Shown piece after piece: positions 5,649 through 59,530 of a stretch of DNA of 64,000 nt. The stretch's first letter is position 1. Each line of letters starts with the position of its first letter. Source of the DNA: a virus. Made by a program: the position numbers and the translations under genes. A model generated the notes under the pieces. It ran no database searches and was not told the DNA's origin. It saw only the letters and a list, made by a program, of their open reading frames with translations. The stretch is from UHGV virus genome UHGV-0306641. One strand, 5' to 3'.

Positions 5649-5799
5649 AGTTTTCTAACAGAAAAATACCTTGCTTTAAATATATTAAAGCCTTAGATTT
5701 TAATGGAGCAAAAGAAAGGCCCGGCTATGCCGGGCCTCACATTCACCTGTAGGTTTTCGCCGTCAAACTTAGGCCTACAGAGAACAACAGGACTATATC

Positions 5800-7351: not shown

Positions 7352-7430
7352 TGTTCGTTATTAATAGACTATTAGGAAATTACAGATTATTATTTGCCTT
7401 GTTAATACCATAAAATCTAACAAGGAATAT

Positions 7431-8741
7431 TTGAATATAATGTCTAATGCCGCAGAACAACTCACCACTCCTACCCGCATCACCGATGAGGTACTTCACC
7501 TGTCCTTTGTCGGCGTCTATAACCAGCTGAATCTGACATTACGCCGTATCAGCGGCGACGACCTCGACCGGCGCGCGTTGGAAACCAGCATCAGCATGAT
7601 CGAGCAGTTGCAGAGTGACGTTAACACGCGTCTGGATGATGAAACCAACGACTGTAACGCCCTTATTGAACAGCTTGAGGCAACGAAAAACCAGCTACTG
7701 GGGATGAACCTGTACAAAGTAGAGGTACAGGAAGAGGCGCTGGCTAAAGAAGACGAGCTGGAGGGGTTACGTCATGACGCCAAAATGAAGGCGCTTGAGC
7801 TGGAAAACGCAATTATTAATTTAAAGAGCCAGATTGAGTCATCAGCACAGGAATTAACAACGATGCAGCTGGCCTACAATTCATTGAAAGCGTCCTTTGA
7901 TACCTATAAGCGCTTACATCCAGAATCCATTCTCCGTGAGCGTGACGATCTGACAAAGCAAGTCTCCAGGTTGCGAGCAGAGCGCAAAGAAACAAATAAG
8001 AGACTTCAAACCATGCAGAGTAAGCTGAATATTGCCGACAAGGAAGTTGCTGCAGCCCGTTCTAGCCTGATCACCAAGCGTCAGGATATGGACCGGCTTC
8101 ATGCTTTGCATGAGAACCTGAAAAAGCGGGTGGATTTTCACGACGGTCGCGAACAAGTGAAGCTGCATACAGTTGTTACTGAGCAAGGGACTGAGCTTAA
8201 CCTGTATATCTACAACTTCCACTTTGGCCTTTTGGCGCGCAATAGCTACATAAAGGGGCATGTTATTGAACTGGCTGATTTTCATTTCCAGATCCGTACA
8301 GCCATGATGGTTGCGATGGACGTGGTGCCTGGTGTGTGGGGAAACCCTATCTACGAACGTCTGAGCGTATTTAAAAATGCTTGGGATTCTGCGATAGACG
8401 AAGAATTACATCAGCGGATCATGGTCCGGTTAGAAATGGACTTCCCGAAAATCCACAAGCGCGCACTGGATGCCATCGCAGCTGGCATTGACGAACTGAC
8501 ATTACCGGCAAAGGTGCTCTCAATCCTGAAAGGTGCTGGATTTAAGAACGTGCAGGCCATAGCGTCCGTACTACCGTTTGAGCTGGTGGATATTAAGGGG
8601 ATTGGAGAACAGACAGCGACGGAAATCACTAACGCGATAAATAGCTGGGCTATTCGCTGGTCGCGCGAGAATTGCGACATTGAGGCATACAAATCGAATG
8701 TGATCAGCAGCGCTAAACCAGCAAAAAGTAAGAGAAAATAA
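7431..8741 (+). CDS. coiled-coil protein with C-terminal helix-hairpin-helix motif (436 aa; TTG at 7431 or ATG at 7440)
   Basis: long heptad-rich N-terminus; C-terminal LVDIKGIGEQTATEI HhH-like motif. Confidence 0.65.
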   Translation: MNIMSNAAEQLTTPTRITDEVLHLSFVGVYNQLNLTLRRISGDDLDRRALETSISMIEQLQSDVNTRLDDETNDCNALIEQLEATKNQLLGMNLYKVEVQEEALAKEDELEGLRHDAKMKALELENAIINLKSQIESSAQELTTMQLAYNSLKASFDTYKRLHPESILRERDDLTKQVSRLRAERKETNKRLQTMQSKLNIADKEVAAARSSLITKRQDMDRLHALHENLKKRVDFHDGREQVKLHTVVTEQGTELNLYIYNFHFGLLARNSYIKGHVIELADFHFQIRTAMMVAMDVVPGVWGNPIYERLSVFKNAWDSAIDEELHQRIMVRLEMDFPKIHKRALDAIAAGIDELTLPAKVLSILKGAGFKNVQAIASVLPFELVDIKGIGEQTATEITNAINSWAIRWSRENCDIEAYKSNVISSAKPAKSKRK

Positions 8742-8833
8742 ATTAAAACCTTAGAATTACATTGATAAAGATTGGAGCAGTACGTAAAGTACGAGCGCGA
8801 CATTACGACATTTAACTAATTCCTTTTGCATGC

Positions 8834-8864: not shown

Positions 8865-8974
8865 ATTCTTTTTTCTCCAAAACGTATCAGGCGCGCTCAA
8901 AATTTGAGGTGACGTGATTACCTATACTTATATTTTCCTTAGAATTATGGGTAATGTTAAGCGGAGGAAATGGA

Positions 8975-9385
8975 ATGTCTGAACGTATAACCAGTGTCGA
9001 AGTTGCTGCAGTTATGCTGAAGTGCGGTCGTTACATGACGATTTCTGAAATCATGGCGGCACTCACCGAAGCCTATCCCGATCTTGAGAACGGGCATACA
9101 TCAGTCACGAACATCGTGCGCACCTTCATGAAATCACCGTCTGCCAGCTGCTTCTCTTTCCCCGGCGCGTATCCTCGCATGTATCTGCTTACTTCGGTTT
9201 CAGGCTATCTATTCAAGATCAGAGGTAACAGGCATGTATGCTACGACGATTTGCCGTTTCATAGCGGGAGTAAAAAGGATCAGGAAATAGAGAATAAAAA
9301 AAGCCAGGAGGTTTCCCGGCTGGCCTTTAATTTATTTAACAGCATTTGTCGTGAGCGGATCGCATCAGGTATTACTATCGTCTGA
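8975..9385 (+). CDS. hypothetical protein (136 aa)
   Basis: GGAGGA RBS 6 nt upstream of ATG. Confidence 0.6.
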   Translation: MSERITSVEVAAVMLKCGRYMTISEIMAALTEAYPDLENGHTSVTNIVRTFMKSPSASCFSFPGAYPRMYLLTSVSGYLFKIRGNRHVCYDDLPFHSGSKKDQEIENKKSQEVSRLAFNLFNSICRERIASGITIV

Positions 9386-11197: not shown

Positions 11198-12427
11198 ATG
11201 GCAAAGATTGACTGGGATTGGCACAGGGAAAATTATAAAAAACATAAACTTGAGTCAGGTGTGACTTACAAGGAGTATGCCGAATACCATTCCTTAAACC
11301 CGAATACCGCACGCCGCGAACTGAGTAAAAAGGTGGGTGATGAGGGGCAGGCACCCACGGTCCCGTCGCGTGATCAGGATGATGATCTAACCATCAGGAG
11401 AAAGGGGAGAAAACTCAAGCATAGCAGTGCCTTAGAGGAAATTACCGGGCAGGGTGAACCCGGCGAAACACGCGCAGGCACGAAAAATAAAAAAAATAAT
11501 TCCAAAGGCACACGCGCCAAAATGATCAAACCAGTGCATGAGGGGGAAGTGATCCCACATGTACCGAAACAACGAGGTAAGGGTAAGCAATTCGAAACCG
11601 GCAACGAGGTGAATGTTGTCGCGAATACCAGAGGAAAGCCACGCGAGGTTGATCGTGATGCTGCTGTCTCATTGTTGGAAGCTGGCCTGGAAGAATGCGA
11701 GGCATCCACAGTTAAAACAGCTGTCGAGCATATGCAGCTGTTGTCGCGAACCACAGCCAGGGCAGTAGAGCTATTCGAAACTGAAATAGCCAATATGAAT
11801 ATCCCACGAGAAAAGGGTGACAAGGATGGTGATGACGATGCTCCGTCCGGGCCACACCCGCTGTTAAAGCTGACAAAACTCCTGATTGAAGTCGGCTACA
11901 GGATGGATGACCACGCTACCCGTATCAGTTCTATCCGTTCCTCACGAGAAAAGCTCAAGATTGACCGTGAAAAGCTGGGCGCAAAAGCGACCGAAGCACA
12001 GGTTATTGCCACCGCCTACCAGCTGCGTGATGAAAACGACTGGGATATAGCAGAAACCGCTGAGTACATCGAGCGTCATGGGGTAAAACTGCCGGATTCA
12101 ATCGCCTTGAGGCTGGCTAAGGAGATCAAGGAAGCAGAACCGCCAGTTAGTGACGTCAACGCTGTAGATGATGACCAACTGGAAGAAGAGGCCCGTAAAT
12201 ATCGTGAAGCGCAGGCCGGTAAAGAAGCCTTCCTGAAAGAGCGCCGGGAAACTATCGCCAGGATTGTAGACGAGGGCGGGTATGGCGATACGAACCATGA
12301 CGGTATCAGGCGCGAAGGGGAGCTAGACCCGGATGAAGAGGGCTTAGATCTCGATTACGAAGCGACCCGCGAGTTATACGGCGAAGGCGATGAGATCGCG
12401 ATAGCGCCCCCGGATGAGGACGAATAA
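11198..12427 (+). CDS. pacA: terminase small subunit PacA homolog
   Basis: N-terminus DWDWHRENY...SLNPNTARR and C-terminus IARIVDEGGYGD plus acidic tail align with P1 PacA (from memory); stop overlaps pacB start (TAATG). Confidence 0.8.
   Translation: MAKIDWDWHRENYKKHKLESGVTYKEYAEYHSLNPNTARRELSKKVGDEGQAPTVPSRDQDDDLTIRRKGRKLKHSSALEEITGQGEPGETRAGTKNKKNNSKGTRAKMIKPVHEGEVIPHVPKQRGKGKQFETGNEVNVVANTRGKPREVDRDAAVSLLEAGLEECEASTVKTAVEHMQLLSRTTARAVELFETEIANMNIPREKGDKDGDDDAPSGPHPLLKLTKLLIEVGYRMDDHATRISSIRSSREKLKIDREKLGAKATEAQVIATAYQLRDENDWDIAETAEYIERHGVKLPDSIALRLAKEIKEAEPPVSDVNAVDDDQLEEEARKYREAQAGKEAFLKERRETIARIVDEGGYGDTNHDGIRREGELDPDEEGLDLDYEATRELYGEGDEIAIAPPDEDE
11372..11655 (+). repeat. scattered TGATC(A/G/C/T) hexamers inside 5' part of pacA, at the position homologous to P1 pac
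   Basis: TGATCA 11372, TGATCT 11384, TGATCA 11523, TGATCC 11550, TGATCG 11650; the SRDQDDD coding segment aligns with the P1 PacA segment that encodes pac. Confidence 0.4.
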
Positions 12428-13938
12428 TGGCATCCGGGAAGAAGAAAATTAAATGTGTAACCTCTGATCCGCGCTGGCGTGAAATGGCTATCCGCTATCG
12501 CCATGACTGGGGGTTAGCGGTCGTTGAATTGTTCGGAATGCAACCGAGCTGGCAGCAGGATGAAATACTGCAGTCTGTCCAGCAGATAAAGAGCATGACA
12601 ACCGTTACTTCGGGGCATGGTACTGGTAAGTCATCCCTGACAGCCATGATGCTGATGATTTACATGATCCTGTACCCGGATGCGCGCGTCGTCATCATCG
12701 CGAACAAGATTGCGCAGGTAAAATCCGGCGTATTCAAGTACGTGAAAACCTTTTGGGCCAACGCCGTAAAACGTCATCCGTGGCTGCAGAACCACTTTGT
12801 TTTAACCGACACCATGTTTTATGAGAGAAGCCGGAAAGGGGTGTGGGAAGTTCTCTGTAAAGGCTATCGTCTGGGTAATGAGGAAGGGCTGGCAGGGGAA
12901 CACTCCAAACACTTACTGATCATCTTGGATGAGGCGTCCGGTATCTCTGATAAGGCGATCGGCATCCTGACCGGTGCGCTGACGGAAGCTGATAACCGCA
13001 TGCTTATGCTGTCCCAGCCAACGCGCCCGTCTGGTTACTTCTACGACTCTCACCACAGCCTGGCGAAGACTGAACATAACCCTAAAGGGATCTGGACGTC
13101 GATTGTCCTCAACTCTGAGGAATCACCGTTTGTAACAGACGACTTTATTGTCATGAAGCTGGCGGAATATGGCGGTCGTGACAGCATGGAATACAAAATC
13201 AAGGTACTGGGCCAGTTCCCGTCCGTGATTGATGGCTTCCTGTTGGGCCGCGATGCCTGTGAGCGCGCCCAGCGTCGTAAAGTGTACCTTGAGAAAAACT
13301 GGGGCTGGGTGGCGCTGGCTGACGTTGGGAACGGTCGTGACAAATCCGTCCTGAACATTATGAAGGTAAGCGGCTATCGTGAGAAACGTCGGTTCGTTCC
13401 GTTCGTTGTGCTTGAAATGCCGGGTACCATGAACCCTACAGAGTTCGGTGACTTTATTGCGAACGAATGTACTCAGGAGCGGTTCCCCAATATCACTATA
13501 GGCGTGGATAGTGACGGCGTAGGCTCAGCTACTGCCGATCAGCTGGAGCGCAGGGGGGTTAACGTTGTCCGTATCCGCTGGGGTAAACCTATGTTCGCCA
13601 AAACAGATAAGGACCGATTCGTAAGCCAGAGAGCCTATGCCAACATCGCAGCTCGTGACGCCATACAGACGGGACGTATGAGGCTGGACTCATCGCCAAA
13701 GACAGCAGAACAGGCTTCAAAGATACCTTGGAAGATAAACGAAGATGGGCGTGTGGCGATGATGAAAAAGGATTACATGCGGCAGAAGATGAATATCAAG
13801 TCGCCAGACCGTTGGGATACGTACTGTTTTTCAACGCTTATATCGTATCGCCCTGCAAATGATGACCTGGGTGGAGACATGGAAGAAACCCGCGCAGATG
13901 CACTGGCAGAACTGTCGAAATATGACGATGTGATTTAA
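12427..13938 (+). CDS. pacB: terminase large subunit PacB homolog
   Basis: Walker A SGHGTGKS, Walker B LLIILDEASG, C-terminal nuclease-like region; immediately follows pacA. Confidence 0.85.
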   Translation: MASGKKKIKCVTSDPRWREMAIRYRHDWGLAVVELFGMQPSWQQDEILQSVQQIKSMTTVTSGHGTGKSSLTAMMLMIYMILYPDARVVIIANKIAQVKSGVFKYVKTFWANAVKRHPWLQNHFVLTDTMFYERSRKGVWEVLCKGYRLGNEEGLAGEHSKHLLIILDEASGISDKAIGILTGALTEADNRMLMLSQPTRPSGYFYDSHHSLAKTEHNPKGIWTSIVLNSEESPFVTDDFIVMKLAEYGGRDSMEYKIKVLGQFPSVIDGFLLGRDACERAQRRKVYLEKNWGWVALADVGNGRDKSVLNIMKVSGYREKRRFVPFVVLEMPGTMNPTEFGDFIANECTQERFPNITIGVDSDGVGSATADQLERRGVNVVRIRWGKPMFAKTDKDRFVSQRAYANIAARDAIQTGRMRLDSSPKTAEQASKIPWKINEDGRVAMMKKDYMRQKMNIKSPDRWDTYCFSTLISYRPANDDLGGDMEETRADALAELSKYDDVI

Positions 13939-15003: not shown

Positions 15004-15105
15004 TGTGTGATTGTCCTTTTGGTTGTACTAACACGTTCTTACCCACTTGCTACCCACATTGAAAGTAATCAACGAACACGATAAAGCCTTAGAAAGACAG
15101 CGATC

Positions 15106-16585: not shown

Positions 16586-16666
16586 ATACGCATCATTCTA
16601 AGGCTTTAATTTGTTGTAACGTGACTATTATTAGGACAAAATCGGACACGCGCCAAAGGAGGTGTT

Positions 16667-19617: not shown

Positions 19618-20059
19618 ATTTCCCTACCAGATCAAATAGCAATAAATATGCTTGCCCTCATATCTGGCGAGATAGGTTATAGGACTTTCCGCAATAACAG
19701 TAATTTTTTACGCAATAATCTTTAACGCAACAGCACCTGCCGAGCGCCATGTGACTATCTAATCCGCTCTACGACTTGTCGCACCCTGATTTGACATTGA
19801 ATTCTAAGGATTTACTTTATGTTTACTTGCTAATAACTGAGGGCAGTAAGCATGTTAGGGTAAAAACTCATTTGCTCACCTGCCCCCATGGAAAATAAAA
19901 TAGCAGCACGGTAACAATTACAAACGAGAGGAATATATGAAAATTAAAATCAAGCTTATTATCTTTACTTTCAAAATAAACTTACATATTGAGAGATTAT
20001 GCAATTAAATAAAAATGGGGGATTCGACCAGATGTGTCCTCCCCTATAGTTTCCGTATC

Positions 20060-21020: not shown

Positions 21021-21158
21021 AAAAACACTCCTGTCATTCGTAAGTGAACAATAATAATCAATATGATTCTAAGGTATTTGTATTTATCGAATGGATAAAT
21101 TACAGCATTCCGTTTTATACTCTGAGAATACCATTAAATCTAAGGGTTTTTAAAAGGG

Positions 21159-21833
21159 TTGTTCATGCTTAGTACAGAGGATCGGGATGCACTCTACGAA
21201 AAACAGCGAATCGCAGCGCAACGGCAGCGCGAACGTCAGAAGACCAAGCTGGCTGACCCAGCTTATCGGCAACATCAACAGGAAAAACGGCAGGCGGCAG
21301 CACAACGATCCGCCGAAAAACGATTAGCCCGTATCCGTTCACCGGAGTATCAGGAAGCGCAGCGTGAAAAACAGCGCATTAAGCGACAGGAAACAGCACA
21401 GAAACCACGTACAGCACTTACCGTTACCAAAACCCGTAAAACCTCAACGCGAGGACTGAAAGGCAGAACCCCGACCGCAGACGAACGGCGCGTAATGAAT
21501 GCGTTAGCCAAACTCCCCTGCACCGCTTGCTGGCTGCATAAACACCACCAGCCAATTGTCAGCCTGCATCATGTAAATGGGCGCACTGCAGCTGGCGCGC
21601 ATATGGATGTTTTACCGTTGTGCCGGTGGCATCACCAGGACGCGGCCCCAAAAGCAGATCGCGAGCAATACCCGTGGCTGGTGCCGGTTCATGCCAGCGG
21701 CAATGTTGGCGGAAAGGCCGAATTTACGCGCCTGAACGCCTCCGAAGAAGATTTGCTACTCATGGCCTACGAACAGGCTGGAATAATCAGAGAGGTACAT
21801 GGTGTGCCACTCGTAAAAAGGAACGAACAATAA
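21159..21833 (+). CDS. Ref-like HNH endonuclease with basic disordered N-terminus
   Basis: CTACWLHKHHQ...LHHVNGR...PLCRWHHQ HNH/zinc motif; basic repeat-rich N-terminal 100 aa as in P1 Ref (from memory). Confidence 0.65.
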   Translation: MFMLSTEDRDALYEKQRIAAQRQRERQKTKLADPAYRQHQQEKRQAAAQRSAEKRLARIRSPEYQEAQREKQRIKRQETAQKPRTALTVTKTRKTSTRGLKGRTPTADERRVMNALAKLPCTACWLHKHHQPIVSLHHVNGRTAAGAHMDVLPLCRWHHQDAAPKADREQYPWLVPVHASGNVGGKAEFTRLNASEEDLLLMAYEQAGIIREVHGVPLVKRNEQ

Positions 21834-22621
21834 TGAGAATAAAACATTGCGCCACATCTGATCCACGTTGGGTGGAGCTGGTAGAGAAATATCAGAGTAA
21901 CTGGAATCAAGCGATGATAGACATCTTTGGTATGACACCTACAGATCAGCAAAAACTGGTGATAGAAAGAGCAAGCAAACCGGGTTCACATACAACGGTA
22001 ACAACCCCTAGTGGAATTGGTTGTAAACACCTCATAAGTGCTATTGCCATTCTCCTCGTAATTCTTTATCCCAATGGGCGAGTTATCATCCCATCAATGG
22101 ACGTTGCCGCCACCAAAAGCCAAATAATGAAGTACATGAAGCAACATTGGTATAAAGCGATTCAAAATCATCCATGGCTTGATATTTACTTTGACCTAAC
22201 GAGCAACGGAATCCATGAACGAAGCACCGACCGCCTTTGGTTTAGCAGTTTTAAAAGCGTCAGAAAGTATCCAGAAAGCATAGCTGGTGAATATGCCAAA
22301 CATCTGTTTTTCATTTGCCCTAATGCCAATAGCTTATCCGAAAAGATAATGGGAATTATCAATGCCTCATTGGTTGAAAGGGACAATGGAATACTGCTCA
22401 CAGGAATACCATCAGAACACCGTACTTACTTTTATCATAGCCACCATAGGCTATCAGGGGATCTATATTCAGCGATTCAATTGAGTGCCGAAGATTCTCC
22501 ACTCGTAACGCCGGAATACATAGAGATGAAAAGACGTGAACTTGGAGGACGCGACACAAACGCTTATCGGATGCAGGTCCTGGGCCTTTTCCCAAACGAA
22601 TCATCCACCAGCGATATATAG
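21833..22621 (+). CDS. degenerate paralog of terminase large-subunit N-terminal ATPase domain (mat-position gene)
   Basis: colinear with PacB residues 1-265 (SDPRW, FGM.P..QQ, YP..RV.I, HPWL, HSHH, K..VLG.FP) but Walker A becomes PSGIGCKH and Walker B LFFICPNANS; no nuclease domain; TAATG overlap with the preceding HNH gene. Confidence 0.7.
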   Translation: MRIKHCATSDPRWVELVEKYQSNWNQAMIDIFGMTPTDQQKLVIERASKPGSHTTVTTPSGIGCKHLISAIAILLVILYPNGRVIIPSMDVAATKSQIMKYMKQHWYKAIQNHPWLDIYFDLTSNGIHERSTDRLWFSSFKSVRKYPESIAGEYAKHLFFICPNANSLSEKIMGIINASLVERDNGILLTGIPSEHRTYFYHSHHRLSGDLYSAIQLSAEDSPLVTPEYIEMKRRELGGRDTNAYRMQVLGLFPNESSTSDI

Positions 22622-22629
22622 GTGTAACA

Positions 22630-22860
22630 GTGACAAGAACAGCAACGGAACGGGCCTTAAATCCCCACGGACACGTATATATACTGGATGGATTAACCAA
22701 ACTCCATATTTGTAAGATTTGCGGAACCTGTGAGCGCCGGAACGGACAATATTGGTGGGCTGGTAAGTGGAGTAAGACAGAGCCGCCGTGCGGCCTCAAC
22801 ACAGATGGACAACGGGACTGGCATAACAATGCAAACCCTGACAACGAAGACGAACCATGA
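22630..22860 (+). CDS. small Cys-rich protein (GTG start)
   Basis: HICKICGTCERR...PPCG zinc-ribbon-like. Confidence 0.35.
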   Translation: MTRTATERALNPHGHVYILDGLTKLHICKICGTCERRNGQYWWAGKWSKTEPPCGLNTDGQRDWHNNANPDNEDEP

Positions 22861-22903
22861 CCGGCTGCAGGACGATAAATAATTCCTTGACGCAAAAAAA
22901 ACA

Positions 22904-22925
22904 CAAAGTACAAACCGCATAAAAT
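22904..22925 (+). promoter_or_regulatory. conserved 19-bp element CAAAGTACAAACCGCATAA + CATAAA(-10-like), class II late-promoter candidate
   Basis: identical 19-mer also at 52615; CTCGCAGC box follows. Confidence 0.45.
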
Positions 22926-23013
22926 CCTCGCAGCTTTTGTGTTCCCTTGAGGGTACTTTTGACAATTTAACTTCCTGCTTTAGCGCGGTTGGGAACATCA
23001 ATAGCCAGTAAGG

Positions 23014-23035
23014 GGCCGCAATCGCGGCCTTTTTG
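23014..23035 (+). terminator. Rho-independent terminator/attenuator hairpin in leader
   Basis: GGCCGC-aatc-GCGGCC then T5. Confidence 0.6.
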
Positions 23036-23054
23036 CTTTCTGGAGGATAGAAAA

Positions 23055-23714
23055 TTGAGTCAAAAAATAGCTGTTTTCAGTCTCTCAACATCAACCCCGC
23101 TCTATGTCACCGCCATCTATAACGATGACAACAACCTGATAATGAGCACCCCGAAATCACTTCCCAACTCATTAAAACAACAACGAGTAAAGGTGATCCC
23201 CGCCGTCGAGAAGTTACTTAAAGCTGACTTTAAGGTGCTGGTGGATGAAACCAGTGGGACCATTGCGAGCGAAAGTGGCGCTCACCATGTTTCACTGAAG
23301 ACGCGACATACAGACTCGCGCGCTGCAGTTTTGGTCGGCATCGAGCGTTACAACGAATTGCGCCTCCAGAAAGCCATTTCTCTTCCAGAGAAAAACCCCG
23401 GCGCATATGAGATCCCGTCTTCTATCGTGGACATTGATTACAACGCCGCCGGTGACGAGGTATATCACATCAACTGGCAGGATATTCGACCCGAGCACCT
23501 GCTTACGATCATGTGCTGTTTTGCCACGGTATACCATCCTGTTACTTCTGCTGCGTATATCAAAGCCATGACCGGCTGCAGCGAAGAACGCGAGCAGCAC
23601 CCGCTATTACGCGTTTTCGGGAATCTCATTAAGCATCAGGAAGTGACCAGTGCAAACGCCGTACCGCCATCGCTAACCGGGAAGCGAATCAGTGATAACG
23701 AGGTCATTCTATGA
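23055..23714 (+). CDS. hypothetical protein (TTG start after GGAGGA RBS; alt ATG 23142)
   Basis: track ORF start at 22989 rejected because terminator hairpin lies inside it. Confidence 0.45.
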   Translation: MSQKIAVFSLSTSTPLYVTAIYNDDNNLIMSTPKSLPNSLKQQRVKVIPAVEKLLKADFKVLVDETSGTIASESGAHHVSLKTRHTDSRAAVLVGIERYNELRLQKAISLPEKNPGAYEIPSSIVDIDYNAAGDEVYHINWQDIRPEHLLTIMCCFATVYHPVTSAAYIKAMTGCSEEREQHPLLRVFGNLIKHQEVTSANAVPPSLTGKRISDNEVIL

Positions 23715-24040
23715 GTTACAACCGCCTGGATGACCGCACAATTGACGATCCTATCCTGCTGGCATTGTTTCATCAGGAAGTCATTGCACGGGCCACCAGC
23801 TACAGCGCCGACAACATCTCTTACACCATCAAGCCCGATGAGGTTTACCGTTCTGATTTGTCGGCGTTTCGCTGTTACGGCAATGAAGAATTACGCTGGG
23901 TATTCCGCCTGCTGGTGGGGCATGAATCTGAAACTGAAGCCATGCCGGTTGGCACAACGTTAACCGTGCCGCCGGTGGCCTGGATACGTGACCGGATGCG
24001 CGACTATGCGTCGGGAACGGTGGAGTTAATCAGTGGCTGA
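23711..24040 (+). CDS. hypothetical protein (109 aa)
   Basis: ATGA-coupled to neighbours. Confidence 0.55.
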   Translation: MSYNRLDDRTIDDPILLALFHQEVIARATSYSADNISYTIKPDEVYRSDLSAFRCYGNEELRWVFRLLVGHESETEAMPVGTTLTVPPVAWIRDRMRDYASGTVELISG

Positions 24041-25235
24041 TTTTCCCCGCGCCAGTAACGGTCGATATCAAACAGAAGGCCTAAGCGCTCGCGAGTTCGA
24101 ACGCCTATTCAACCAGATTGAGAAGGATAAGCGAAGCAAGCGCCGCGCCGCTCGCCGCACTCTGACGCCGTTTTCACTGAAGAACAAAACAGCCGAAGAT
24201 ATCCTCTCGCTTGGCAAGAAGAAAAAAGGCGGTACGTTCTTCACGGTCGAAGACCTGAAGGCATTTGAAAGTCGCCGCAAGGATATCCGACAGACGTTCA
24301 ATTCAGGCGTCGCCGGGATTACCTATGCCCAGCTCATAGCCGGAAGTGAAGCGATTGACGTTAAACGTGCTAACAACGCCGTAGACGACGGTTCCGGCAT
24401 TAAGCGCGCCGTGCCTTCATCATTGAAGCATAACGTCGTCACAGTCAGCGTGGAGGCTTCAGATCGATCCGAAGACCAGCATCACCGCGTAAAAGTACGC
24501 TTTGAGGAATGGGATTCACTGATTGATGAGCTGGGGGATGAGACTAGCGCGGTAAAAGTGACGAAAAAGCTGTGTGCCGGTCGCGTATCCTTCGATTGTG
24601 ATTGTGGTCGTCATCAATACTGGTATCGCTACATCGCGACCGCTGGTAACTTTGCCCTGGCACCACCAAAGGAATATGCCTTCCCCAAAATCCGTAACCC
24701 TAATCTCAAAGGGATCGCCTGTAAGCACGTGATCCACGCAATGACCCGACTCCAGTCGGCAAGCTGGCAATTGCGGATCGGTCAGGCCATGCTGCAGGCC
24801 GCTAAGCGTGTAGGGTTCGGTGACGACAAGCGGAGAACTACCAAACATTTCACTGAGGAAGACCGGAAAAGATTCAACAAGAACCGTAACTCACAGACTA
24901 ACCAGGGGGCGATGCGTCAGGAGTGGGATAAATACCAGCGCCGCCAGAAAGCGCTGGGTAATCAGATTGCGCGAGACAGTACAAAGCTACGTTCCCTCAG
25001 CGACAAACTACTAAAAGCCCGGAAAATGACGCAAAAACAACGGGCAAAGGCAGAAGAAAGTCAGCAAAAGCTTAAAGCCGAGCAGGATAAAAACAAGGTG
25101 CTGCAGCAGCAGCTCGCCGATCGTTTCAAGGTGGAACGCCAGGCGTTTATTGATGCGATGATAATGACTGGTGTATCACGTCAGGACGCCGAGAAGCGCT
25201 TCCTGGACTACGTGAAAAACAAAGGCAGGGGTTAA
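24033..25235 (+). CDS. SWIM zinc-finger protein with basic coiled-coil C-terminus
   Basis: CAGRVSFDCDCGRHQYWY...CKHVIHAM (CxCxnCxH SWIM signature). Confidence 0.6.
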   Translation: MADFPRASNGRYQTEGLSAREFERLFNQIEKDKRSKRRAARRTLTPFSLKNKTAEDILSLGKKKKGGTFFTVEDLKAFESRRKDIRQTFNSGVAGITYAQLIAGSEAIDVKRANNAVDDGSGIKRAVPSSLKHNVVTVSVEASDRSEDQHHRVKVRFEEWDSLIDELGDETSAVKVTKKLCAGRVSFDCDCGRHQYWYRYIATAGNFALAPPKEYAFPKIRNPNLKGIACKHVIHAMTRLQSASWQLRIGQAMLQAAKRVGFGDDKRRTTKHFTEEDRKRFNKNRNSQTNQGAMRQEWDKYQRRQKALGNQIARDSTKLRSLSDKLLKARKMTQKQRAKAEESQQKLKAEQDKNKVLQQQLADRFKVERQAFIDAMIMTGVSRQDAEKRFLDYVKNKGRG

Positions 25236-25241
25236 TACAAA

Positions 25242-25273
25242 AGCCCCCAACCTTTCGGTCAGGGGGCTATTTT
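25242..25273. terminator. bidirectional terminator
   Basis: AGCCCCC...GGGGGCT stem between convergent genes. Confidence 0.55.
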
Positions 25274-25691
25274 ACGCGTCCATGAATGAGCTTGCCGGAA
25301 TGTTAAAGCGCCGCGCAAGTGCTTTCATGTGATCCAGTGTTAATGAGCGAGTCCCGTTAAGGATACGGCTCACAAGCGATTTCTTACCAATCTCTTCCTC
25401 AAAATCACTCTGAGTCAGTTTGTGCTGGTCCATCAGGACACGCAGCAGGGCCACGCCGCTTGGTAACGCTGCAATACGCTCGTTGAACTCAGCCAACTCT
25501 TCCGCCTCATCTTCATACTGGGAAATTTTCGCAACCAGCATGTCCACCAGCGGATGATCTGGCTCGTGTTCAATCAGGTATTCAACCAGCGTCAGCGCGT
25601 CTTCATAGTCCTTACGAGAGGCATTGCCCCCCAGGAGGGGGACAATGCTAACCAGGCTGTTTGCCGCCTGGAGAGCATCGGTATACATCAT
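25272..25691 (-). CDS. higA: HigA antitoxin (HTH-XRE)
   Basis: near-colinear with E. coli K-12 HigA (VSRILNGTRSLTLDHMKALARRFNI). Confidence 0.9.
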   Translation of the reverse strand: MMYTDALQAANSLVSIVPLLGGNASRKDYEDALTLVEYLIEHEPDHPLVDMLVAKISQYEDEAEELAEFNERIAALPSGVALLRVLMDQHKLTQSDFEEEIGKKSLVSRILNGTRSLTLDHMKALARRFNIPASSFMDA

Positions 25692-25999
25692 TCTTTCGTT
25701 CTCCGGTAAAAATCTGTCAGCTTGTCGTATTCGGCATGTGTGGTTATGTGCTTTATGAAGATTTTCCCACGTTCAAAATCAGCAAAAAACATCACTCTCA
25801 AATTCCCGCCGCCTACATCGATCACCCACCACTTCTCCCGATATTTCATTCTGTCCAGCGAGGCAAATCGCTTCTTCATGTCGTCCGGTGAAGTGTAATT
25901 ATCTTTCTTCAAAGTCCGGTATACGCTTTCAAGTGCCGCTGCCTGATTGGGAAATTGCCTGGTGGCTGTATCGAAGGGAATCCTCGATACAACGTGCAT
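25688..25999 (-). CDS. higB: HigB mRNA interferase toxin
   Basis: FASLDRMKYREKWWVIDVGGGNLRVMFFADFERGKIFIKHITTHAEYD matches HigB; AAGGAG RBS; ATGA overlap with higA. Confidence 0.9.
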   Translation of the reverse strand: MHVVSRIPFDTATRQFPNQAAALESVYRTLKKDNYTSPDDMKKRFASLDRMKYREKWWVIDVGGGNLRVMFFADFERGKIFIKHITTHAEYDKLTDFYRRTKE

Positions 26000-26148
26000 C
26001 CTTATCTCCTTTCGTTTCCATCTTGGAAACATAGTATCTCACTATCCGAATGTTGACAAGATGGATACTAAAATAATTTATGCATCTGCAATTCACAATC
26101 TCCATACAGTGCTCACATCCGCAAATTAACCCGTCAGTGAGGCACAGA

Positions 26149-26910
26149 ATGGGCCGTTTTGATGAATGGCTTAACGACACAAAGCCGGTAACAGTCACAC
26201 CGGTTAGCTCTGCCGTTATCCAGCCAGAGGAAACAACCGAAGTCACCCCACCAGCAATTACCGATATGGATGAGCTGGTGGAGGTGGATATTGCTGCCCC
26301 GCAGCAGCCAGAAGAAACGCTTTTTGATGAGATAGGCTCAACAGAAAGCGCGCCGGTCGCAGCATTGCCAGGTGAACTGGCGACACGCGATCAGGACATA
26401 AGTCTGAAGCCGCGTTTTAAAGGTCACTCCCCGCTCAATTCGATGGTTCGCCTGGACTGGATGAAACTCATTGAACTGCACCCGGATAACTTTGACGCCC
26501 TGCTCTTTCGGCCTGACCCCGAGGATGTGGGCGAAGTTGACGAAGAAAGCGGCATTGAAGGCCCATCCTACACCGAACTGAACAACAATCAGCGTGACCT
26601 ACGCTATCTCGATCCGGTCCCGGTCAAAGTGCTGGATTGTCCTGATGAACGGGACTCATTTCAGGTCGTGGATTCTGACGGCGAACAGGATGGACTGAGT
26701 GACGAGCTTCAGTTACTACGTATAGCCGCAGAAAACGTGTCTATCGGCTCAATACTCACCTGGAATGAGGAAATGGCATCCGGGAAGCTGGCCCAGCGCT
26801 GGTGGTATGTACACCGCATTTACAGCTTTGGTACGCAGCACGTCGGATCGCTGTATTACTGCATTCCTGCACGAAACATGGATACAACTGAGGGAGGGAT
26901 CGTTAAATGA
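26149..26910 (+). CDS. acidic hypothetical protein (254 aa)
   Basis: start at MGRFDEW with GAGG RBS; first gene of plus-strand structural-like operon. Confidence 0.55.
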   Translation: MGRFDEWLNDTKPVTVTPVSSAVIQPEETTEVTPPAITDMDELVEVDIAAPQQPEETLFDEIGSTESAPVAALPGELATRDQDISLKPRFKGHSPLNSMVRLDWMKLIELHPDNFDALLFRPDPEDVGEVDEESGIEGPSYTELNNNQRDLRYLDPVPVKVLDCPDERDSFQVVDSDGEQDGLSDELQLLRIAAENVSIGSILTWNEEMASGKLAQRWWYVHRIYSFGTQHVGSLYYCIPARNMDTTEGGIVK

Positions 26911-29303: not shown

Positions 29304-29369
29304 ATAACATTAATTCTAAGGAACAATGTGATTTAATCTACCTGTCTTTATCAGGTAGGTAATCACAGG

Positions 29370-34849: not shown

Positions 34850-35060
34850 ATATCATCCCCATAGCGCACATAGTATTATCAATGTAATTACACTGTACAT
34901 GCGTGTAATGTTTGGCATATCCGCATGAAGTGTAATGCGTAACCAGCTCATGTCAATACTTTGTATTTACATTACTGACACCACAATGTAAATACATAGG
35001 CAATACACAACAGTAAATACACCAGACATACAACGCATTTACAACCAATCTAAGACGTAA
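34850..35060. repeat. second AT-rich repeat cluster of same family upstream of parA (candidate parS/operator)
   Basis: TTGTATTTACATTAC, AATGTAAATACATAGG, CAGTAAATACACC, CAATGTAATTACACTGTACATGCGTGTAATG. Confidence 0.5.
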
Positions 35061-36851: not shown

Positions 36852-36900
36852 TACCCGAGGTTTAACAAACATACAGCTAACCTTAGTGCTACACCATGAG

Positions 36901-36958
36901 ATCAACGCTGGCGGGTAATATCAACGCTAGCGGGTAAAAACCATCAACGCTGGCGGGT
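36901..36958. repeat. three RepA iterons (incA-like) immediately 3' of repA
   Basis: ATCAACGCT(G/A)GCGGGT x3 (reverse complement of the upstream iterons). Confidence 0.75.
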
Positions 36959-36960
36959 GC

Positions 36961-37845
36961 TCAGGTTATTTTCTTATCGCGGCTAAGAATGTTCAGGACA
37001 AAATCACCACGAACTTTTTCAATACTGTATTTGAGAAATCCGGCTTCAGATAATTGCTCAAGCGCCTTTTTAATGGTCGCATTTTGCGCCCCTTTATGGG
37101 ATGTAAGCTGTAAGCGATCACGCAATCTATCGAAACCAATACGATAAAAATTATCAGGCAATTCAACGAGGTAAAGGTATAGAGCCTGTGCTGACTCTTT
37201 TCTTGATAAGGTCTTCAGTACCTTCAGGTATAAGCGAGTCTTCCCGTCAACCTGATAGAGTGTATTCAGGTCGGGGTTTGGGCGAATAATGACCTCGTCC
37301 GTACCTTCGTCATAGTAAGAAGTCGTAACAAGGCCCATGTTGATATTGACCTTTTTACCCTCTACCGATGATGGTTTCACAAACTTAAAGCTGGTACGCT
37401 GAATACGGGTTAATGAATCGTTGAATCTCTTTCTAAGCTTTGAGTCAACGCGCTTAGTAGCAAGCCCACAACTCATTGCAAAGTCTATGAAATTCATGCG
37501 AACCGTGCCGTTTGCATCCAGGTGCTGATGTGCCAAAGTATCAACGATCCCCAGCCACACTTTGAAGTCGGTATCCATATCGAGCCTCGGACCATAAATA
37601 CTGACGCTTTCATAGCCTTCACCCGCCAGCGTTGATAGGCGGCAAAGTTCTTCAGTAGCATCAACGGTATGGCTACGTTTCATAGGATCAACACCGTCTT
37701 TCACCGTCGGAACAAACACACCCAGGCGCAGTAAAGACTTAGGCTGAATACTTTGTTTTGAGTTAGGAATCAGGTGGATAACTTCACCAGAAGTTTTGTC
37801 AACTTCCGTGATCAAAAGAGCTAAGCCATTGTTTTCTTTTTCCAT
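36961..37845 (-). CDS. repA: plasmid replication initiator RepA (P1 R-replicon type); alt TTG start 37863
   Basis: LLRLGVFVP, IYGPRLDMDTDFKVWLGIV, ESAQALYLYLVELPDN, TIKKALEQL...YSIEK align with P1 RepA. Confidence 0.85.
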   Translation of the reverse strand: MEKENNGLALLITEVDKTSGEVIHLIPNSKQSIQPKSLLRLGVFVPTVKDGVDPMKRSHTVDATEELCRLSTLAGEGYESVSIYGPRLDMDTDFKVWLGIVDTLAHQHLDANGTVRMNFIDFAMSCGLATKRVDSKLRKRFNDSLTRIQRTSFKFVKPSSVEGKKVNINMGLVTTSYYDEGTDEVIIRPNPDLNTLYQVDGKTRLYLKVLKTLSRKESAQALYLYLVELPDNFYRIGFDRLRDRLQLTSHKGAQNATIKKALEQLSEAGFLKYSIEKVRGDFVLNILSRDKKIT

Positions 37846-37884
37846 TCCATCTTCCGCAATCAATGTGGACTTTTTTAAGAGAAT

Positions 37885-37986
37885 ACCCGCTAGCGTTGAT
37901 GATTTCTACCCGCTAGCGTTGATAGTTTACCCTCTAACGCTGATGCGTAACCCGCCAGCGTTGACAATCTACCCGCTAGCGTTGAT
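37885..37986. repeat. five direct iterons (incC/origin-type) upstream of repA
   Basis: ACCCGCTAGCGTTGAT-like repeats at 37885, 37908, 37929, 37950, 37971 (21-23 bp period). Confidence 0.8.
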
Positions 37987-38128
37987 CCGATCAACCTGAG
38001 AGCCGCGATATACAAGGGCTGCGAGAGATCCTATTCTTTTATTAAACTTAGTTTGATCCTCTGTTGATCTTTTTATTTGATCTAATCAGTGAATAACTTA
38101 AGGAATTAGATAGTGACAGGGTGAATAA
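37984..38128. other. oriR-like region: six GATC sites (three as phased TTGATC(T/C) heptamers) plus two DnaA-box-like GTGAATAA sites
   Basis: GATC at 37984, 37989, 38027, 38055, 38066, 38079; AGTGAATAA 38088 and GGTGAATAA 38120 (8/9 to TGTGNATAA). Confidence 0.6.
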
Positions 38129-52562: not shown

Positions 52563-52614
52563 GTAAATCTAACAAAAATAAATTAAATCTATGGTATTTT
52601 TTGAAGTGGGTTAA

Positions 52615-52634
52615 CAAAGTACAAACCGCATAAT
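52615..52634 (+). promoter_or_regulatory. class II late-promoter candidate CAAAGTACAAACCGCATAAT
   Basis: 19/19 identical to element at 22904; CATAAT -10-like; 55 nt upstream of structural gene. Confidence 0.5.
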
Positions 52635-52688
52635 CTCTACGCGTCAAAAGTAACTCTCGCAGCCGCGCCCTAAGATAAGGGCTAAATT

Positions 52689-54440
52689 GTGAGCAAAGAT
52701 ATTTCGCCTGCCCGCGCGCGAATGGATGAAATCAACCAACGCGCCGCGCGTGTCGCAGCATTCACCGTTGATATTCAAAAAAAGAATGGCGTCACCATTA
52801 CCGATCCTAACGAGCTGGCTCAGGCTTCACTGGATGCGGCATTACGTGATCCGATGTTTGAAGGTGTTGACCCACGCTTTGTGAAGCGTGTCGCGAGCGC
52901 GTGGACGTCGGCGATGATCGAGCACCAGCAACGTACCGGTGATTTGCCATCACCAGACCTGCTGGCAAACGCGCAATATTGCTGTGAAAACCTGATGTTG
53001 GAAGCCGCATCTGACAAACATGAAGGTGTTGGTCGCGCGATGTTTGAATCAGCTGCAGCTGATATGCGTACCTCTGATGGTGTTTTACGTCTGGCCCAGT
53101 TCGTAGCGCTTATCCTGCCGGTATCTTTGGGTGCAGCAACGTCTGACGCATGTACTTTCGTACCGTGCGATCGTGATAAAGCCAATATTTACGAACTGCT
53201 TAACGTCGCAGGGACGGAGTTCGGCTCATTCAAGGTCGGTGACGAGCTGCACATGCAAGCCGCCGGTATGTATTCGCAACTCAAGCGTTACTACATCTTC
53301 CCCGCAGATCTTCAGCCAGATGGTACGAAGAAAACCTTCAACTTTGGAATTAAAGCAGTTGAAGGGAAAGATATGGCTATCCGTGCCGGTCGCACGAAGC
53401 TGATCATTAACCGCCGTCAATCTAAAGCTGATGACGGCGACGGCAACCTGTATTTCAACGATAAAGATGCTAACGGGACGGCATTCTCCGCCACCTGTAA
53501 AGTTGCTTATGACAAAGGTACGGTCGCTGTCACCTTCACTGAAGCACCTGCAGCGGGTACTGAATTAGCGATTCAGCTGGAAATCAACATCGAAAAAGCG
53601 CCAGAGCTTATTCCTGTGATTAACCAGTCCATGCGTGAATGGCAGGTTAGCCCTTCTCAGTATGTTGTTGCATCCGAGCACACTGTCATGTCTGCATCTG
53701 ATGCCAGCCGTGAATTTGGCCTCAACATGCAGTCGATCCAGTTTACTGCAATGCGTAACTGGCTCTCCCATGAGCAGGACATGATGCGTCTGCGCCTAAT
53801 GGCGTTTTTCTGTATCGAAAAATACGACTTTGACGTAGCGCTGCCGGAAGCTCAGCAATATGAATCCTGGGTTGGCCTGCTTCGCCATCGTGTGAATGAA
53901 ATGAGCACGGCGATGGTCAATAAAACCCGTAAATCCGGCATTCGTGGCGGTTTTGCTGGTGGTGAGGCTGCGAACTTTATTAAGTCTCTCCCGCCGCAGT
54001 ATTTCTCCCAGGACCCGAACTACGTTGAAAGCCCTCACGTCCAGTACATCGGTACGCTGTTTGGCTACATCCGTATTTTTGAAGTCCCGACCGCTGTTTG
54101 TGACCAGTTCGTAAAAGATGGCTATGACTTCAATTCAAATGAAGTTATTTTCTACGGTCGCGGTAACAGCATTGGTGAAGCAGGTCTTATCACCGGTGAT
54201 GCCGTGCCTGCCATTCCTTATATCCACGAAACCAATCCTTCTTTGGTGAACCGCACCACTATGTGGGGATCTGCGCTTAACGAGATCCATCCGCGTAAAG
54301 GTGAAGCCTATTTCTGCAAGCTGCAGCTGACCAACGCCAAAGTTGGCGCATTCAACATGCTGAACGGAAAGAAAATCGAAGCAGGTCAACCGACTGAGCC
54401 TGAAGTGCCGGAAGTGGCTGACGCCAAATCCACCAAATAA
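52689..54440 (+). CDS. virion structural protein (583 aa; GTG start)
   Basis: first gene of tail module under conserved promoter element. Confidence 0.6.
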   Translation: MSKDISPARARMDEINQRAARVAAFTVDIQKKNGVTITDPNELAQASLDAALRDPMFEGVDPRFVKRVASAWTSAMIEHQQRTGDLPSPDLLANAQYCCENLMLEAASDKHEGVGRAMFESAAADMRTSDGVLRLAQFVALILPVSLGAATSDACTFVPCDRDKANIYELLNVAGTEFGSFKVGDELHMQAAGMYSQLKRYYIFPADLQPDGTKKTFNFGIKAVEGKDMAIRAGRTKLIINRRQSKADDGDGNLYFNDKDANGTAFSATCKVAYDKGTVAVTFTEAPAAGTELAIQLEINIEKAPELIPVINQSMREWQVSPSQYVVASEHTVMSASDASREFGLNMQSIQFTAMRNWLSHEQDMMRLRLMAFFCIEKYDFDVALPEAQQYESWVGLLRHRVNEMSTAMVNKTRKSGIRGGFAGGEAANFIKSLPPQYFSQDPNYVESPHVQYIGTLFGYIRIFEVPTAVCDQFVKDGYDFNSNEVIFYGRGNSIGEAGLITGDAVPAIPYIHETNPSLVNRTTMWGSALNEIHPRKGEAYFCKLQLTNAKVGAFNMLNGKKIEAGQPTEPEVPEVADAKSTK

Positions 54441-59316: not shown

Positions 59317-59329
59317 ACGTAAATGCAGT

Positions 59330-59530
59330 GTATGTACTTGATGTTATGTCATTGGATATGCGATGTAATATCAATGTACATACAAATATGTAATTACGAC
59401 GTACATGCAATGTGTGTTCGTTGTGCCGCATAAGTGCGACACTGTATTTACAAATAAGTATTTACTGTGTATGTGCGTATGGTTAACGATGTGAATATGT
59501 TGTATTTACTTAATCGTATTATCATTGTAT
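59330..59530. repeat. third AT-rich repeat cluster of the TGTATTTAC / ATGTACATACAA family, inside the tail module
   Basis: CTGTATTTACAAATAAGTATTTACTG, TTGTATTTACTTAATCG, CATTGTATTTACGTTG, CAATGTACATACAAATATGTAATTACG. Confidence 0.55.

Follow-up and report, generated by a model that had tools for sequence, protein, structure and literature searches.

Genes and features at the mat and capsid loci

We analyzed a 64,000-nucleotide (nt) stretch of viral DNA (UHGV virus genome UHGV-0306641), referred to here as the window, and focused on positions 22904 to 23054, immediately upstream of a homologue of the phage P1 gene mat. This interval carries one of two exact copies of a 19-mer, a predicted leader RNA, and an intrinsic terminator. 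The other copy, at 52615, precedes a homologue of P1 gene 23, which encodes the major capsid protein. Our main subject is the mat leader and its complementarity to the predicted 5' end of the capsid messenger RNA (mRNA).

The window encodes a DarB-like giant protein, a Ulx-like protein, a Ref-like nuclease, and a PmgS-like protein, together with an Lpa-like activator, PacA/PacB-like terminase subunits, a gp23 capsid homologue, a sheath protein, and baseplate proteins. Because of these P1-type homologues and of plasmid matches at 95 to 99% identity, we classify the window, from its sequence, as a P1-like phage-plasmid. The mat region (22000 to 24500) matched 167 plasmids of Klebsiella, Citrobacter, Raoultella, and E. 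coli at that identity, and searches of a phage collection with the region by megablast and blastn returned no nucleotide match. Relatives were gathered from plasmids, protein searches, and IMG/VR; protein-guided retrieval supplied about 90 further mat loci, and the leader was present in about 159 plasmid records.

The mat homologue is the first gene of its operon and runs on the plus strand from a TTG at 23055 to 23714. An earlier note on this DNA had placed a ribosome binding site (RBS) and a TTG start after the terminator, and both held up: the motif GGAGG lies at 23042 to 23046, and the protein read from the TTG aligned with PHROG 1837 from residue 1. It is 35% identical to P1 Mat and 52% identical to D6 Mat. 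Homologues of P1 genes 26 and 25 follow (23711 to 25235). The second 19-mer copy lies 55 nt before a GTG at 52689, as the note had stated; the gene that begins there is the capsid gene and not a tail gene as had been supposed, and the sheath gene comes next. The homologue of the late promoter activator Lpa is encoded at 8954 to 9385 on the plus strand (PHROG 1704, expectation value [E] of 3e-25; Pfam PF25716, 86.8 bits with the cutoff at 35). It gave no match to P1 in a tblastn search at an E of 1e-5 or lower.

The repeated 19-mer resembles the late promoters of P1

The 19-mer CAAAGTACAAACCGCATAA occurs at 22904 to 22922 and at 52615 to 52633, both on the plus strand, as the earlier note had claimed. 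These are the only two copies: no third was found when the window was scanned with up to three mismatches allowed, and none of 100 dinucleotide shuffles contained two matches. Identity around the 19-mer extends to 29 nt at 86%. The note had also drawn attention to CTCGCAGC downstream of both copies, and it is indeed present at 22927 to 22934 and at 52656 to 52663. We rejected it as a common element, however, since the sharing is inconsistent across other lineages and partly reflects the pairing sites described below (the capsid target and the possible second contact); the rest is treated as chance or as a lineage-specific feature.

The record of P1 lists 11 late promoters, each a 19-bp unit composed of a 9-bp "-22 region", 4 bp, and a -10 hexamer, which align as aAC-AAGTGACTT-N4-TAnAAT. 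One of these, LPmat, precedes mat, and another, LP23, lies 52 nt before gene 23. In the window, copy 1 (22904 to 22925, plus strand) consists of the box CAAAGTACAAAC, the spacer CGCA, and the -10 hexamer TAAAAT at 22920 to 22925, and its 9-bp equivalent of the "-22 region" is AGTACAAAC (22907 to 22915). Copy 2 (52615 to 52636, plus strand) has the same box and spacer, followed by TAATCT at 52631 to 52636. The arrangement of AGTACAAAC, CGCA, and the -10 hexamer thus reproduces the 9+4+6 geometry of the P1 units, and both hexamers fit the P1-type TAnnnT pattern. The 9-bp element, centered near -22, lies 4 bp 5' of the -10, where it stands in place of a -35, and an Lpa-family activator is encoded in the window. 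Copies 1 and 2 are the positional homologues of LPmat and LP23, respectively. The inverted repeat AAGTNACTT of the P1 Lpa site is absent from the window copies, whose box AGTACAAAC is different and nonpalindromic, and no promoter with the canonical AAGTGACTT was found in the window.

The P1 geometry, the positions corresponding to LPmat and LP23, and the Lpa homologue in the window together support the interpretation, made from sequence, that the 19-mer is a variant late promoter of the P1 type, dependent on an activator and distinct from plain sigma-70 promoters. The promoter proposed in the earlier note therefore stands by homology to LPmat and LP23 but not as a plain sigma-70 element. Its -10, read as CATAAA/CATAAT, has to be moved 2 nt rightward to TAAAAT/TAATCT, judging from the alignment with diverged relatives. 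The homologous hexamers in such relatives are TATCTT, TACAGT, CATAAT, AATACT, and TAATTT, and A2 and T6 are kept in the aligned TATCTT, TACAGT, CATAAT, and AATACT. Spacing from the -10 predicts transcription starts at about 22932 for copy 1 and about 52643 for copy 2. The box is conserved in both copies and between lineages, and box sequences coevolve between the two promoters within each lineage. By analogy with P1, the window promoters are presumed to depend on Lpa; the divergence of the box fits with a diverged Lpa (37% identity between the window homologue and D6 Lpa).

A -35-like TTGACG is present at 22887 to 22892 on the plus strand, 27 bp upstream of the -10 of copy 1 and beyond normal sigma-70 spacing. 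TTGAC is kept 19 to 27 bp upstream of the mat-promoter -10 in every lineage, including P1, whose record labels it the -35 of a sigma-70 promoter, Pmat; in most lineages it is too distant for a normal -35. Looser pattern scans of the window gave several extra promoter-like matches, only one of which was retained as a candidate third late promoter: AATTCACAATC TCCA TACAGT at 26090 to 26110 (plus strand). An inserted higBA-like module immediately precedes this candidate, and the next tail gene begins 38 nt downstream of it with an ATG at 26149.

A conserved terminator precedes the start of mat

Between copy 1 and the mat homologue the earlier note had also proposed an intrinsic terminator, which we found on the plus strand at 23010 to 23039. 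Its stem is formed by GGGGCCGC and GCGGCC(UU), its loop is AAUC, and its tail is UUUUUGCUUU. A consensus scan delineated the hairpin itself at 23010 to 23033 (AAGGGGCCGC aatc GCGGCCTTTT, then a T-run/GCTTTC). The stem of 10 pairs, 6 of them G-C, closes a loop of 4 nt and is followed by TTTTTGCTTT. A hairpin with a T-run is found in all lineages and folds independently in each of them, although the loops vary. The stem core GCCGC/GCGGC (23012 to 23031) is near-invariant across lineages while the loops differ completely, a pattern in the sequences that suggests a constraint on the stem beyond hairpin formation.

All Mat homologues begin at an ATG or TTG just 3' of the terminator. In P1 (AF234172), the -10 of LPmat at 2691 to 2696 is followed, after about 100 nt, by the hairpin AAGCCGCC-gct-GGTGGCTT (2800 to 2817), the T-run TTCTTTTTT, an RBS, and an ATG at 2827. 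The annotated mat start at 2716 makes the open reading frame (ORF) cross this hairpin. Because homologues and other P1-like records begin mat at the ATG equivalent to 2827, the start at 2716 is probably an overextension by 37 codons.

The mat leader is a conserved unit with a covarying fold

The predicted mat leader RNA is about 105 nt long (22932 to 23036, plus strand) and comprises a structured domain and the terminator. Its P1 counterpart would span about 2703 to 2817 of AF234172. In Leclercia, Pantoea, and Enterobacter plasmids and a second Citrobacter plasmid, whose upstream genes are unrelated, homology begins just 5' of the promoter box, some 8 nt ahead of the 19-mer. The order of box, leader of about 80 nt, hairpin with T-run, RBS, and mat was kept in every lineage examined: Klebsiella/Citrobacter, Leclercia-like, Pantoea, Enterobacter, D6, Rosenbergiella, Cronobacter JK004, and P1. 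The leader of the window thus appears as a short noncoding unit bounded by its own predicted promoter and terminator.

Single-sequence folds of ten lineages, including P1 and JK004, revealed a common plan in most, with two hairpins (P2 and P3), the terminator, and a long helix by which the predicted 5' end is closed. In the window, the 5' arm of the closing helix (GCU.UUG UGUUCCC, 22933 to 22946) pairs with the 3' arm (GGGAACA.CAA.AGC, 22991 to 23005), both on the plus strand. P2 has a large apical loop with CUUUUGAC, or with CCCUUUUC in P1 types. P3 is a small hairpin whose 3' side carries GCGCGG (22983 to 22988, plus strand), which is invariant in 18 of 18 aligned non-P1-type leaders and has GGCAC as its P1-type equivalent. 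Compensatory changes in the closing helix are visible in the raw sequences: UGUUCCC/GGGAACA in the window corresponds to CGAACC/GGUUCG in Rosenbergiella, GCGCUAAGGUUCCC/GGGAGCCCUAGCGC in Enterobacter, GCCCGGUAC/GUACCGGGC in P1, and AGCCCGGUGC/GCGCCGGGCU in JK004.

A covariance model was built from five window-type sequences. It gave full-length matches in all non-P1 lineages (E of 1e-5 to 1e-32), a single strong match in the window, at 22929 to 23036, and no detection of P1-type leaders. On the model alignment, 95.5% of cells in the fold were paired, compared with 82.9% in shuffles (a value reached in 0 of 500). Changes on both sides were seen in 15 of 25 fold pairs, including all 7 outer pairs of the closing helix, and slid controls reached at most 53%. 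When the 18 leaders were instead aligned with MAFFT and folded with RNAalifold, essentially no structure was recovered; the helix arms were out of register.

A scan of the whole window with Rfam 15 gave no match at the gathering score. Subthreshold matches within 22800 to 23120 (Trp_leader, SNORD22, and Parabacteroides-1) were rejected as chance, the best having an E of at least 0.85. We obtained no evidence of a leader peptide: no ORF is conserved, and 22932 to 23036 contains no ATG. Likewise, inspection of the folds of 10 lineages revealed no conserved antiterminator pairing with the terminator arms.

The leader loop is complementary to the predicted start of the capsid mRNA

The 5' arm and apical loop of P2 contain a segment, the seed, with the sequence GAGGGTACTTTTGAC (22949 to 22963, plus strand). 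It is complementary to GTCAAAAGTAACTCTC (52643 to 52658, plus strand), which lies where the gene 23 (capsid) mRNA is predicted to begin, 6 nt after the -10 of copy 2. As RNA, GAGGGUACUUUUGAC faces GUCAAAAGUA(A)CUCUC in a duplex of 15 pairs with one bulged A and one G.U. The core of the seed, TACTTTTGAC, has a predicted probability of being unpaired of 0.82. In the window, GTCAAAAGTA occurs only at 52643 (plus strand) and, as its complement, at 22954. A little farther downstream, the capsid leader contains a hairpin (52663 to 52682, plus strand; GCCCT at 52667 to 52671, aagata, and AGGGC at 52678 to 52682) whose 3' arm holds the likely Shine-Dalgarno sequence AAGGG (52677 to 52681) of the GTG at 52689. 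The 5' arm of this hairpin overlaps CCGCGC (52663 to 52668), with which the GCGCGG of P3 might make a second contact, as GGCAC might with GUGCC in P1 types. We regard both as tentative, the second contact being one that has no covariation behind it.

Gene 23 leaders were then fetched from many relatives and matched to their mat leaders by contig. Seed complementarity was kept even though the sequences differed, with 13 sequence variants in about nine lineages and many compensatory changes. In D6, the mat seed GAAGGUUCUUUUGAC and the capsid mRNA 5' end GUCAAAAGAACCUUC form 15 of 15 Watson-Crick pairs. The corresponding partners are GAUGGAAUUUUUGAC and GUCAAAAAUUCCCUC in Pantoea, GAGGGUUCUUUUGAC and GUCAAAAGAACUUUC in Enterobacter (with two G.U pairs), GGGUACUUUUGGC and GCCAAAAGUA in Rosenbergiella (where the core, constant elsewhere, has an A-to-G change that is matched by U-to-C), UGGAUCCCUUUUC and GAAAAGGGAUUCA in P1, and GGGACUCUUUUC and GAAAAGAGUUCC in JK004. 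The P1 capsid mRNA is predicted to start at the G or C that opens GAAAAGGGAUUC.

In order to assess the covariation, the two segments were joined in one alignment of the 13 variants, with the register fixed by artificial anchor sequences. The 16 intermolecular pairs were 91.3% paired, compared with 76.3 ± 1.7% in shuffles (0 of 500 reached the observed value), and slid controls gave at most 58%. Ten of the pairs showed changes on both sides, in 29 cells, a count found in none of 500 shuffles, and one pair was represented by UA, AU, CG, and GC. Within the duplex, the cells that depart from Watson-Crick pairing were mostly G.U and never A.C; A.C was confined to frayed ends. Duplex energies averaged -21.4 kcal/mol for cognate and -11.6 kcal/mol for noncognate combinations, and the net energy after opening of both RNAs ranged from -4.0 to -13.1 kcal/mol across lineages. 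These duplex and opening energies were used because the contact is a pseudoknot in the concatenated representation of RNAcofold. The core of the seed was predicted to be accessible in eight of nine lineages (probability unpaired, 0.5 to 0.9). The leader therefore has two properties expected of a small RNA (sRNA), a conserved seed that is predicted to be accessible and target complementarity maintained by compensatory change. Taken across lineages, the sequences exclude a chance origin of the complementarity.

One lineage, L160, was initially known only by its capsid leader, GCCAAAAAACCUCUC. From this we predicted that its mat leader would read GGTTTTTTGGC...GCGCGG (as RNA, GGUUUUUUGGC and then GCGCGG). 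Two of the predicted bases, the outermost ones, were wrong, and a search for the exact 15-mer complement returned the capsid leader and nothing else. The mat leader was located afterwards with a core-plus-GCGCGG pattern, which, in a scan of 2.9 million viral contigs, gave many chance matches and one on the contig of L160 itself. That match is flanked by a promoter box with its -10 (TAAATCACACAC-TTCA-TAGAAT) on one side and a terminator on the other, has a Mat homologue immediately downstream, and forms 13 Watson-Crick pairs with the capsid leader; at the sequence level, the prediction was confirmed. For three further contigs from divergent lineages (IMGVR_UViG_2619619259_000001, 3300012995_000005, and 2871745582_000001), the predicted seeds, with G.U allowed, are GAUUUACAUUUUC, GGUUUGCUUCUCG, and GAGACUCUUUCC.

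We also looked at other possible targets. When the P1 mat seed was compared with the initial transcribed regions of the 11 P1 late promoters, LP23 scored best, at -21.2 kcal/mol, against a background of -9.6 ± 2.9 kcal/mol; a 9-nt complement at LPlyz (-15.6 kcal/mol) was borderline. In the window, no further site stood out. The initial transcribed region of P1 LPpac (AF234172, 90494 to 90515; CGCGTCAAAAAGAG) resembles the 5' end of non-P1 capsid mRNAs (GTCAAAAG...), and the P1 mat seed is not complementary to it.

Interpretation of the mat leader

The interpretation that we favor, with a probability of about 0.6, is that the mat leader is a late, terminated sRNA (or 5' untranslated region) forming base pairs with the capsid mRNA at its 5' end and that the leader terminator additionally attenuates the mat-baseplate operon. 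The Lpa homologue would activate both promoter copies, neither of which has a properly spaced -35. Transcription from copy 1 would first yield the RNA of about 105 nt, its 5' end protected by the long helix, with ..UACUUUUGAC.. exposed in the apical loop of P2, the invariant GCGCGG carried by P3, and the terminator next. Most of these transcripts would stop at the terminator as a discrete small RNA, and readthrough would give the mat-baseplate-tail mRNA at a level below that of the capsid operon, since the two promoters are identical and only the mat side has a terminator. The loop might nucleate pairing with the first 16 or so nucleotides of the capsid mRNA, and the duplex might then extend into the P2 arm. 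Such an antisense contact between a loop and a 5' end would probably alter the stability of the capsid mRNA, by protecting its 5' end, and/or its translation. An effect on translation is conceivable because the Shine-Dalgarno sequence sits in a hairpin just downstream of the contact. Pairing could remodel that hairpin (GCCCU/AGGGC, holding AAGGG), and GCGCGG could pair with the CCGCGC that adjoins it.

The earlier note had left the choice between an RNA of about 100 nt and a leader controlled by attenuation or antitermination. The covarying fold, exposed loop, terminator, and complementarity of the loop to the capsid mRNA give the first option strong support from sequence. For P1-family phages as a whole, P1 included, the odds seem to us a little better than even that a new late sRNA exists, consisting of the terminated mat leader with its loop in a coevolving antisense contact with the capsid mRNA.

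Several observations weigh against this interpretation. By duplex energy, the capsid site ranks only fifth among 42,648 stretches of 30 nt in the window, and the net energy of the window pair (-4.0 kcal/mol) is the weakest of any lineage, owing to its bulge and G.U. In Pantoea, the minimum-energy fold hides the seed (probability unpaired, 0.19). Neither for the window nor for P1 did RNAcofold recover the contact between loop and 5' end. Because the covariance model itself produced the structural alignment, the structures that were tested are at an advantage (the closing-helix compensations are nevertheless those seen in the raw sequences), and the intermolecular alignment was built by hand and anchored on a U4/A4 run. 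Since the lineages are related, the shuffle counts cannot be read as probabilities. Position, fold and architecture, and partial motifs, rather than the covariance model, tie the P1-type leaders to the others. The box, in contrast to that of P1, is not an inverted repeat, so that Lpa dependence is by analogy only. Finally, we infer the start sites, the efficiency of termination, and the abundance of the RNA from sequence, and with them Lpa dependence, the assignment of regulator and target, and the sign of the effect.

A further difficulty is that coevolving protein-binding DNA sites would give the same covariation as RNA pairing. The leader could then be purely cis acting, a constitutive attenuator or insulator that lowers mat-baseplate expression relative to that of the capsid and blocks readthrough from upstream, while the complementary segments of 13 to 16 nt would be inverted DNA sites for a late regulatory protein. 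This is the best of the alternatives. In its favor, identical promoters serve two operons with very different product demand, only one of which has a terminator, and box sequences coevolve between the promoters within lineages, which shows that protein sites do coevolve here. We nevertheless consider it unlikely. Drift of DNA sites should yield G.U and A.C equally, whereas internal departures are mostly G.U with no A.C. The two sites are oppositely oriented and differently spaced from their promoters (+1 versus about +18), and the mat copy occupies the apical loop of a covarying hairpin within an RNA that is closed at its 5' end and ended by a terminator. A plain attenuator, moreover, has no need of an 80-nt conserved fold with invariant loop residues.

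The order of promoter, structured RNA, terminator, and long essential late operon, kept throughout the family, is also what a processive antitermination device would show, either one acting in cis in the manner of HK022 put or a loading site for a protein like lambda Q, with the terminator passed only late. Antiterminators have been indicated for P1, without direct evidence (PMC10695390), and in a variant of this explanation, pairing with the capsid mRNA 5' end could be the trigger. We rate antitermination as somewhat less probable again than a cis-acting attenuator. There is no Rfam match and no conserved alternative pairing between the leader and the terminator arms, the terminator hairpin folds independently in all lineages, and of the late promoters in the window, at least three in number, just one has a leader terminator. 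A Q- or N-like protein did not turn up, although no systematic search for one was made.

A riboswitch or leader-peptide attenuator that senses a metabolite, transfer RNA, or translation is very improbable, despite a conserved structured domain of about 75 nt with invariant loop nucleotides, followed by a terminator and then an RBS, and despite a very weak Trp_leader match (13 bits, E of 6.6), since we found no conserved mutually exclusive antiterminator helix, no conserved leader ORF with a start codon and RBS, and no Rfam family near threshold, and since complementarity to the capsid mRNA explains the invariant loop; the regulated attenuator that the earlier note had offered as its second option accordingly receives no support.

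Other features of the window

An AT-rich motif (AAATAAATTAAA..., CCTTAGAAT / ATTCTAAGG, AAATCTAA) recurs in many intergenic regions of the window. We noted copies at 5677 to 5700, 7413 to 7439, 8735 to 8758, 8937 to 8946, 15085 to 15095, 16593 to 16603, 19800 to 19812, 21066 to 21080, 21135 to 21148, 29310 to 29325, and 52565 to 52598; one copy directly precedes the Lpa homologue, and another the capsid late promoter. They are probably the C1-repressor operators of the window lineage and possibly correspond to the element that the earlier note had called class I.

A pair of genes for a HigB toxin and a helix-turn-helix antitoxin (25272 to 26032, minus strand; annotation taken from the near-identical plasmid NZ_CP114569) is inserted so as to separate the gene 25 homologue from the tail gene that comes next, splitting what is a single operon in relatives. 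The ORF at 21620 to 22621 has a match to the N-terminal portion of PHROG 5902, a family of PacB-like large terminases, a full-length member of which is encoded at 12427 to 13938. It is a partial paralogue situated between ref and the mat promoter and is missing at this position in most relatives. Arrays of a repeat of about 16 nt (ACCCGCTAGCGTTGAT and variants) at 36880 to 36960 and 37884 to 38010 flank a minus-strand ORF (36961 to 37863); this region, 36880 to 38010, has the look of a plasmid replication origin, with iterons and an initiator gene. Two repeat-dense intergenic regions (34860 to 35040 and 59320 to 59520), with repeats of the TGTACAT, GTAATTACA, and GTAAATAC types, may be clusters of binding sites.

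Significance and comparison with known systems

P1, a textbook phage, underlies transduction and vectors in wide use, and P1-like phage-plasmids are common carriers of resistance genes in Enterobacterales. If our interpretation is correct, the pairing would add a regulatory layer that links the head operon and the mat/baseplate operon at the RNA level. The late program would then no longer rest on Lpa alone, and an RNA of P1 would have been hidden within the overextended mat annotation. The mat start in the P1 reference record would be corrected, and there would be reason to revisit the poorly understood "maturation control" locus; the model is directly testable in P1. More generally, covariation between two distant loci can expose sRNA-target pairs of phages from their sequences.

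The description of the P1 late program has Lpa acting on 11 promoters, without an RNA regulator among the late genes and without direct evidence on the handling of terminators (PMC10695390). The window promoters share with LPmat and LP23 the 19-bp unit, the 9-bp box 4 bp before a TAnnnT -10, the lack of a -35 at 17 bp, the positions before mat and some 52 to 55 nt before gene 23, and an Lpa-family protein encoded nearby. They differ in their box, (CAA)AGTACAAAC instead of AAGTGACTT and not an inverted repeat, and in having a diverged Lpa homologue. At the Lpa-dependent late promoters of P1, the host protein SspA is reportedly required as well, according to Hansen et al. in 2003.

In the same phage family, the C4 antisense RNA of P1 and P7, which acts on icd-ant, is likewise a small structured RNA whose exposed segments pair with short complementary stretches of an mRNA transcribed from another place (bioRxiv 10.64898/2025.12.28.696737), and the P1 record lists its pairing sites as a1/b1 and a2/b2. 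C4, however, belongs to the immunity region, is processed from its target's own transcript, and represses translation, whereas the window leader is predicted to be late, ends at a terminator, and would target the extreme 5' end of a structural-gene mRNA; it shares no sequence similarity with C4, and the Rfam scan gave no C4 match. As context only, P1vir shows a reduced burst in an hfq mutant, and its heads and tails are smaller (bioRxiv 10.64898/2025.12.28.696737).

The succession of a late promoter, a strong terminator after about 100 to 200 nt, and a short RNA ahead of the late genes recalls lambda PR', its 6S RNA, and tR'. In contrast to PR', the window promoter would be activator dependent and not constitutive, no Q-like protein or pause element was identified, the terminator is present on only one late operon, and the short RNA has a conserved fold and a complement in its target. 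HK022 put is similar in that a conserved structured RNA directly follows the promoter and precedes terminators, but put is a pair of stem-loops with RNA polymerase as the object of their action, unlike the three-way architecture of the leader, with a loop complementary to another mRNA. Judged by the Rfam scan alone, we found no similarity to put.

No Rfam family or annotation in the P1 or D6 records covers the mat leader RNA and its capsid complement, and no description of the RNA was found in the searchable literature, outside which two key papers lie. Precedents for its proposed mode of action include SreA and SreB of Listeria, leader RNAs that arise from premature termination and pair in trans with a distant mRNA. 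As in those cases, one promoter would give either a short terminated leader or a full mRNA; no ligand-sensing switch is evident in the mat leader, and its partner belongs to another late operon of the same phage, with an identical promoter. A terminated leader RNA that pairs in trans is thus of a known kind; as a family, and as a link between late operons in a paradigm phage, it appears to be new.

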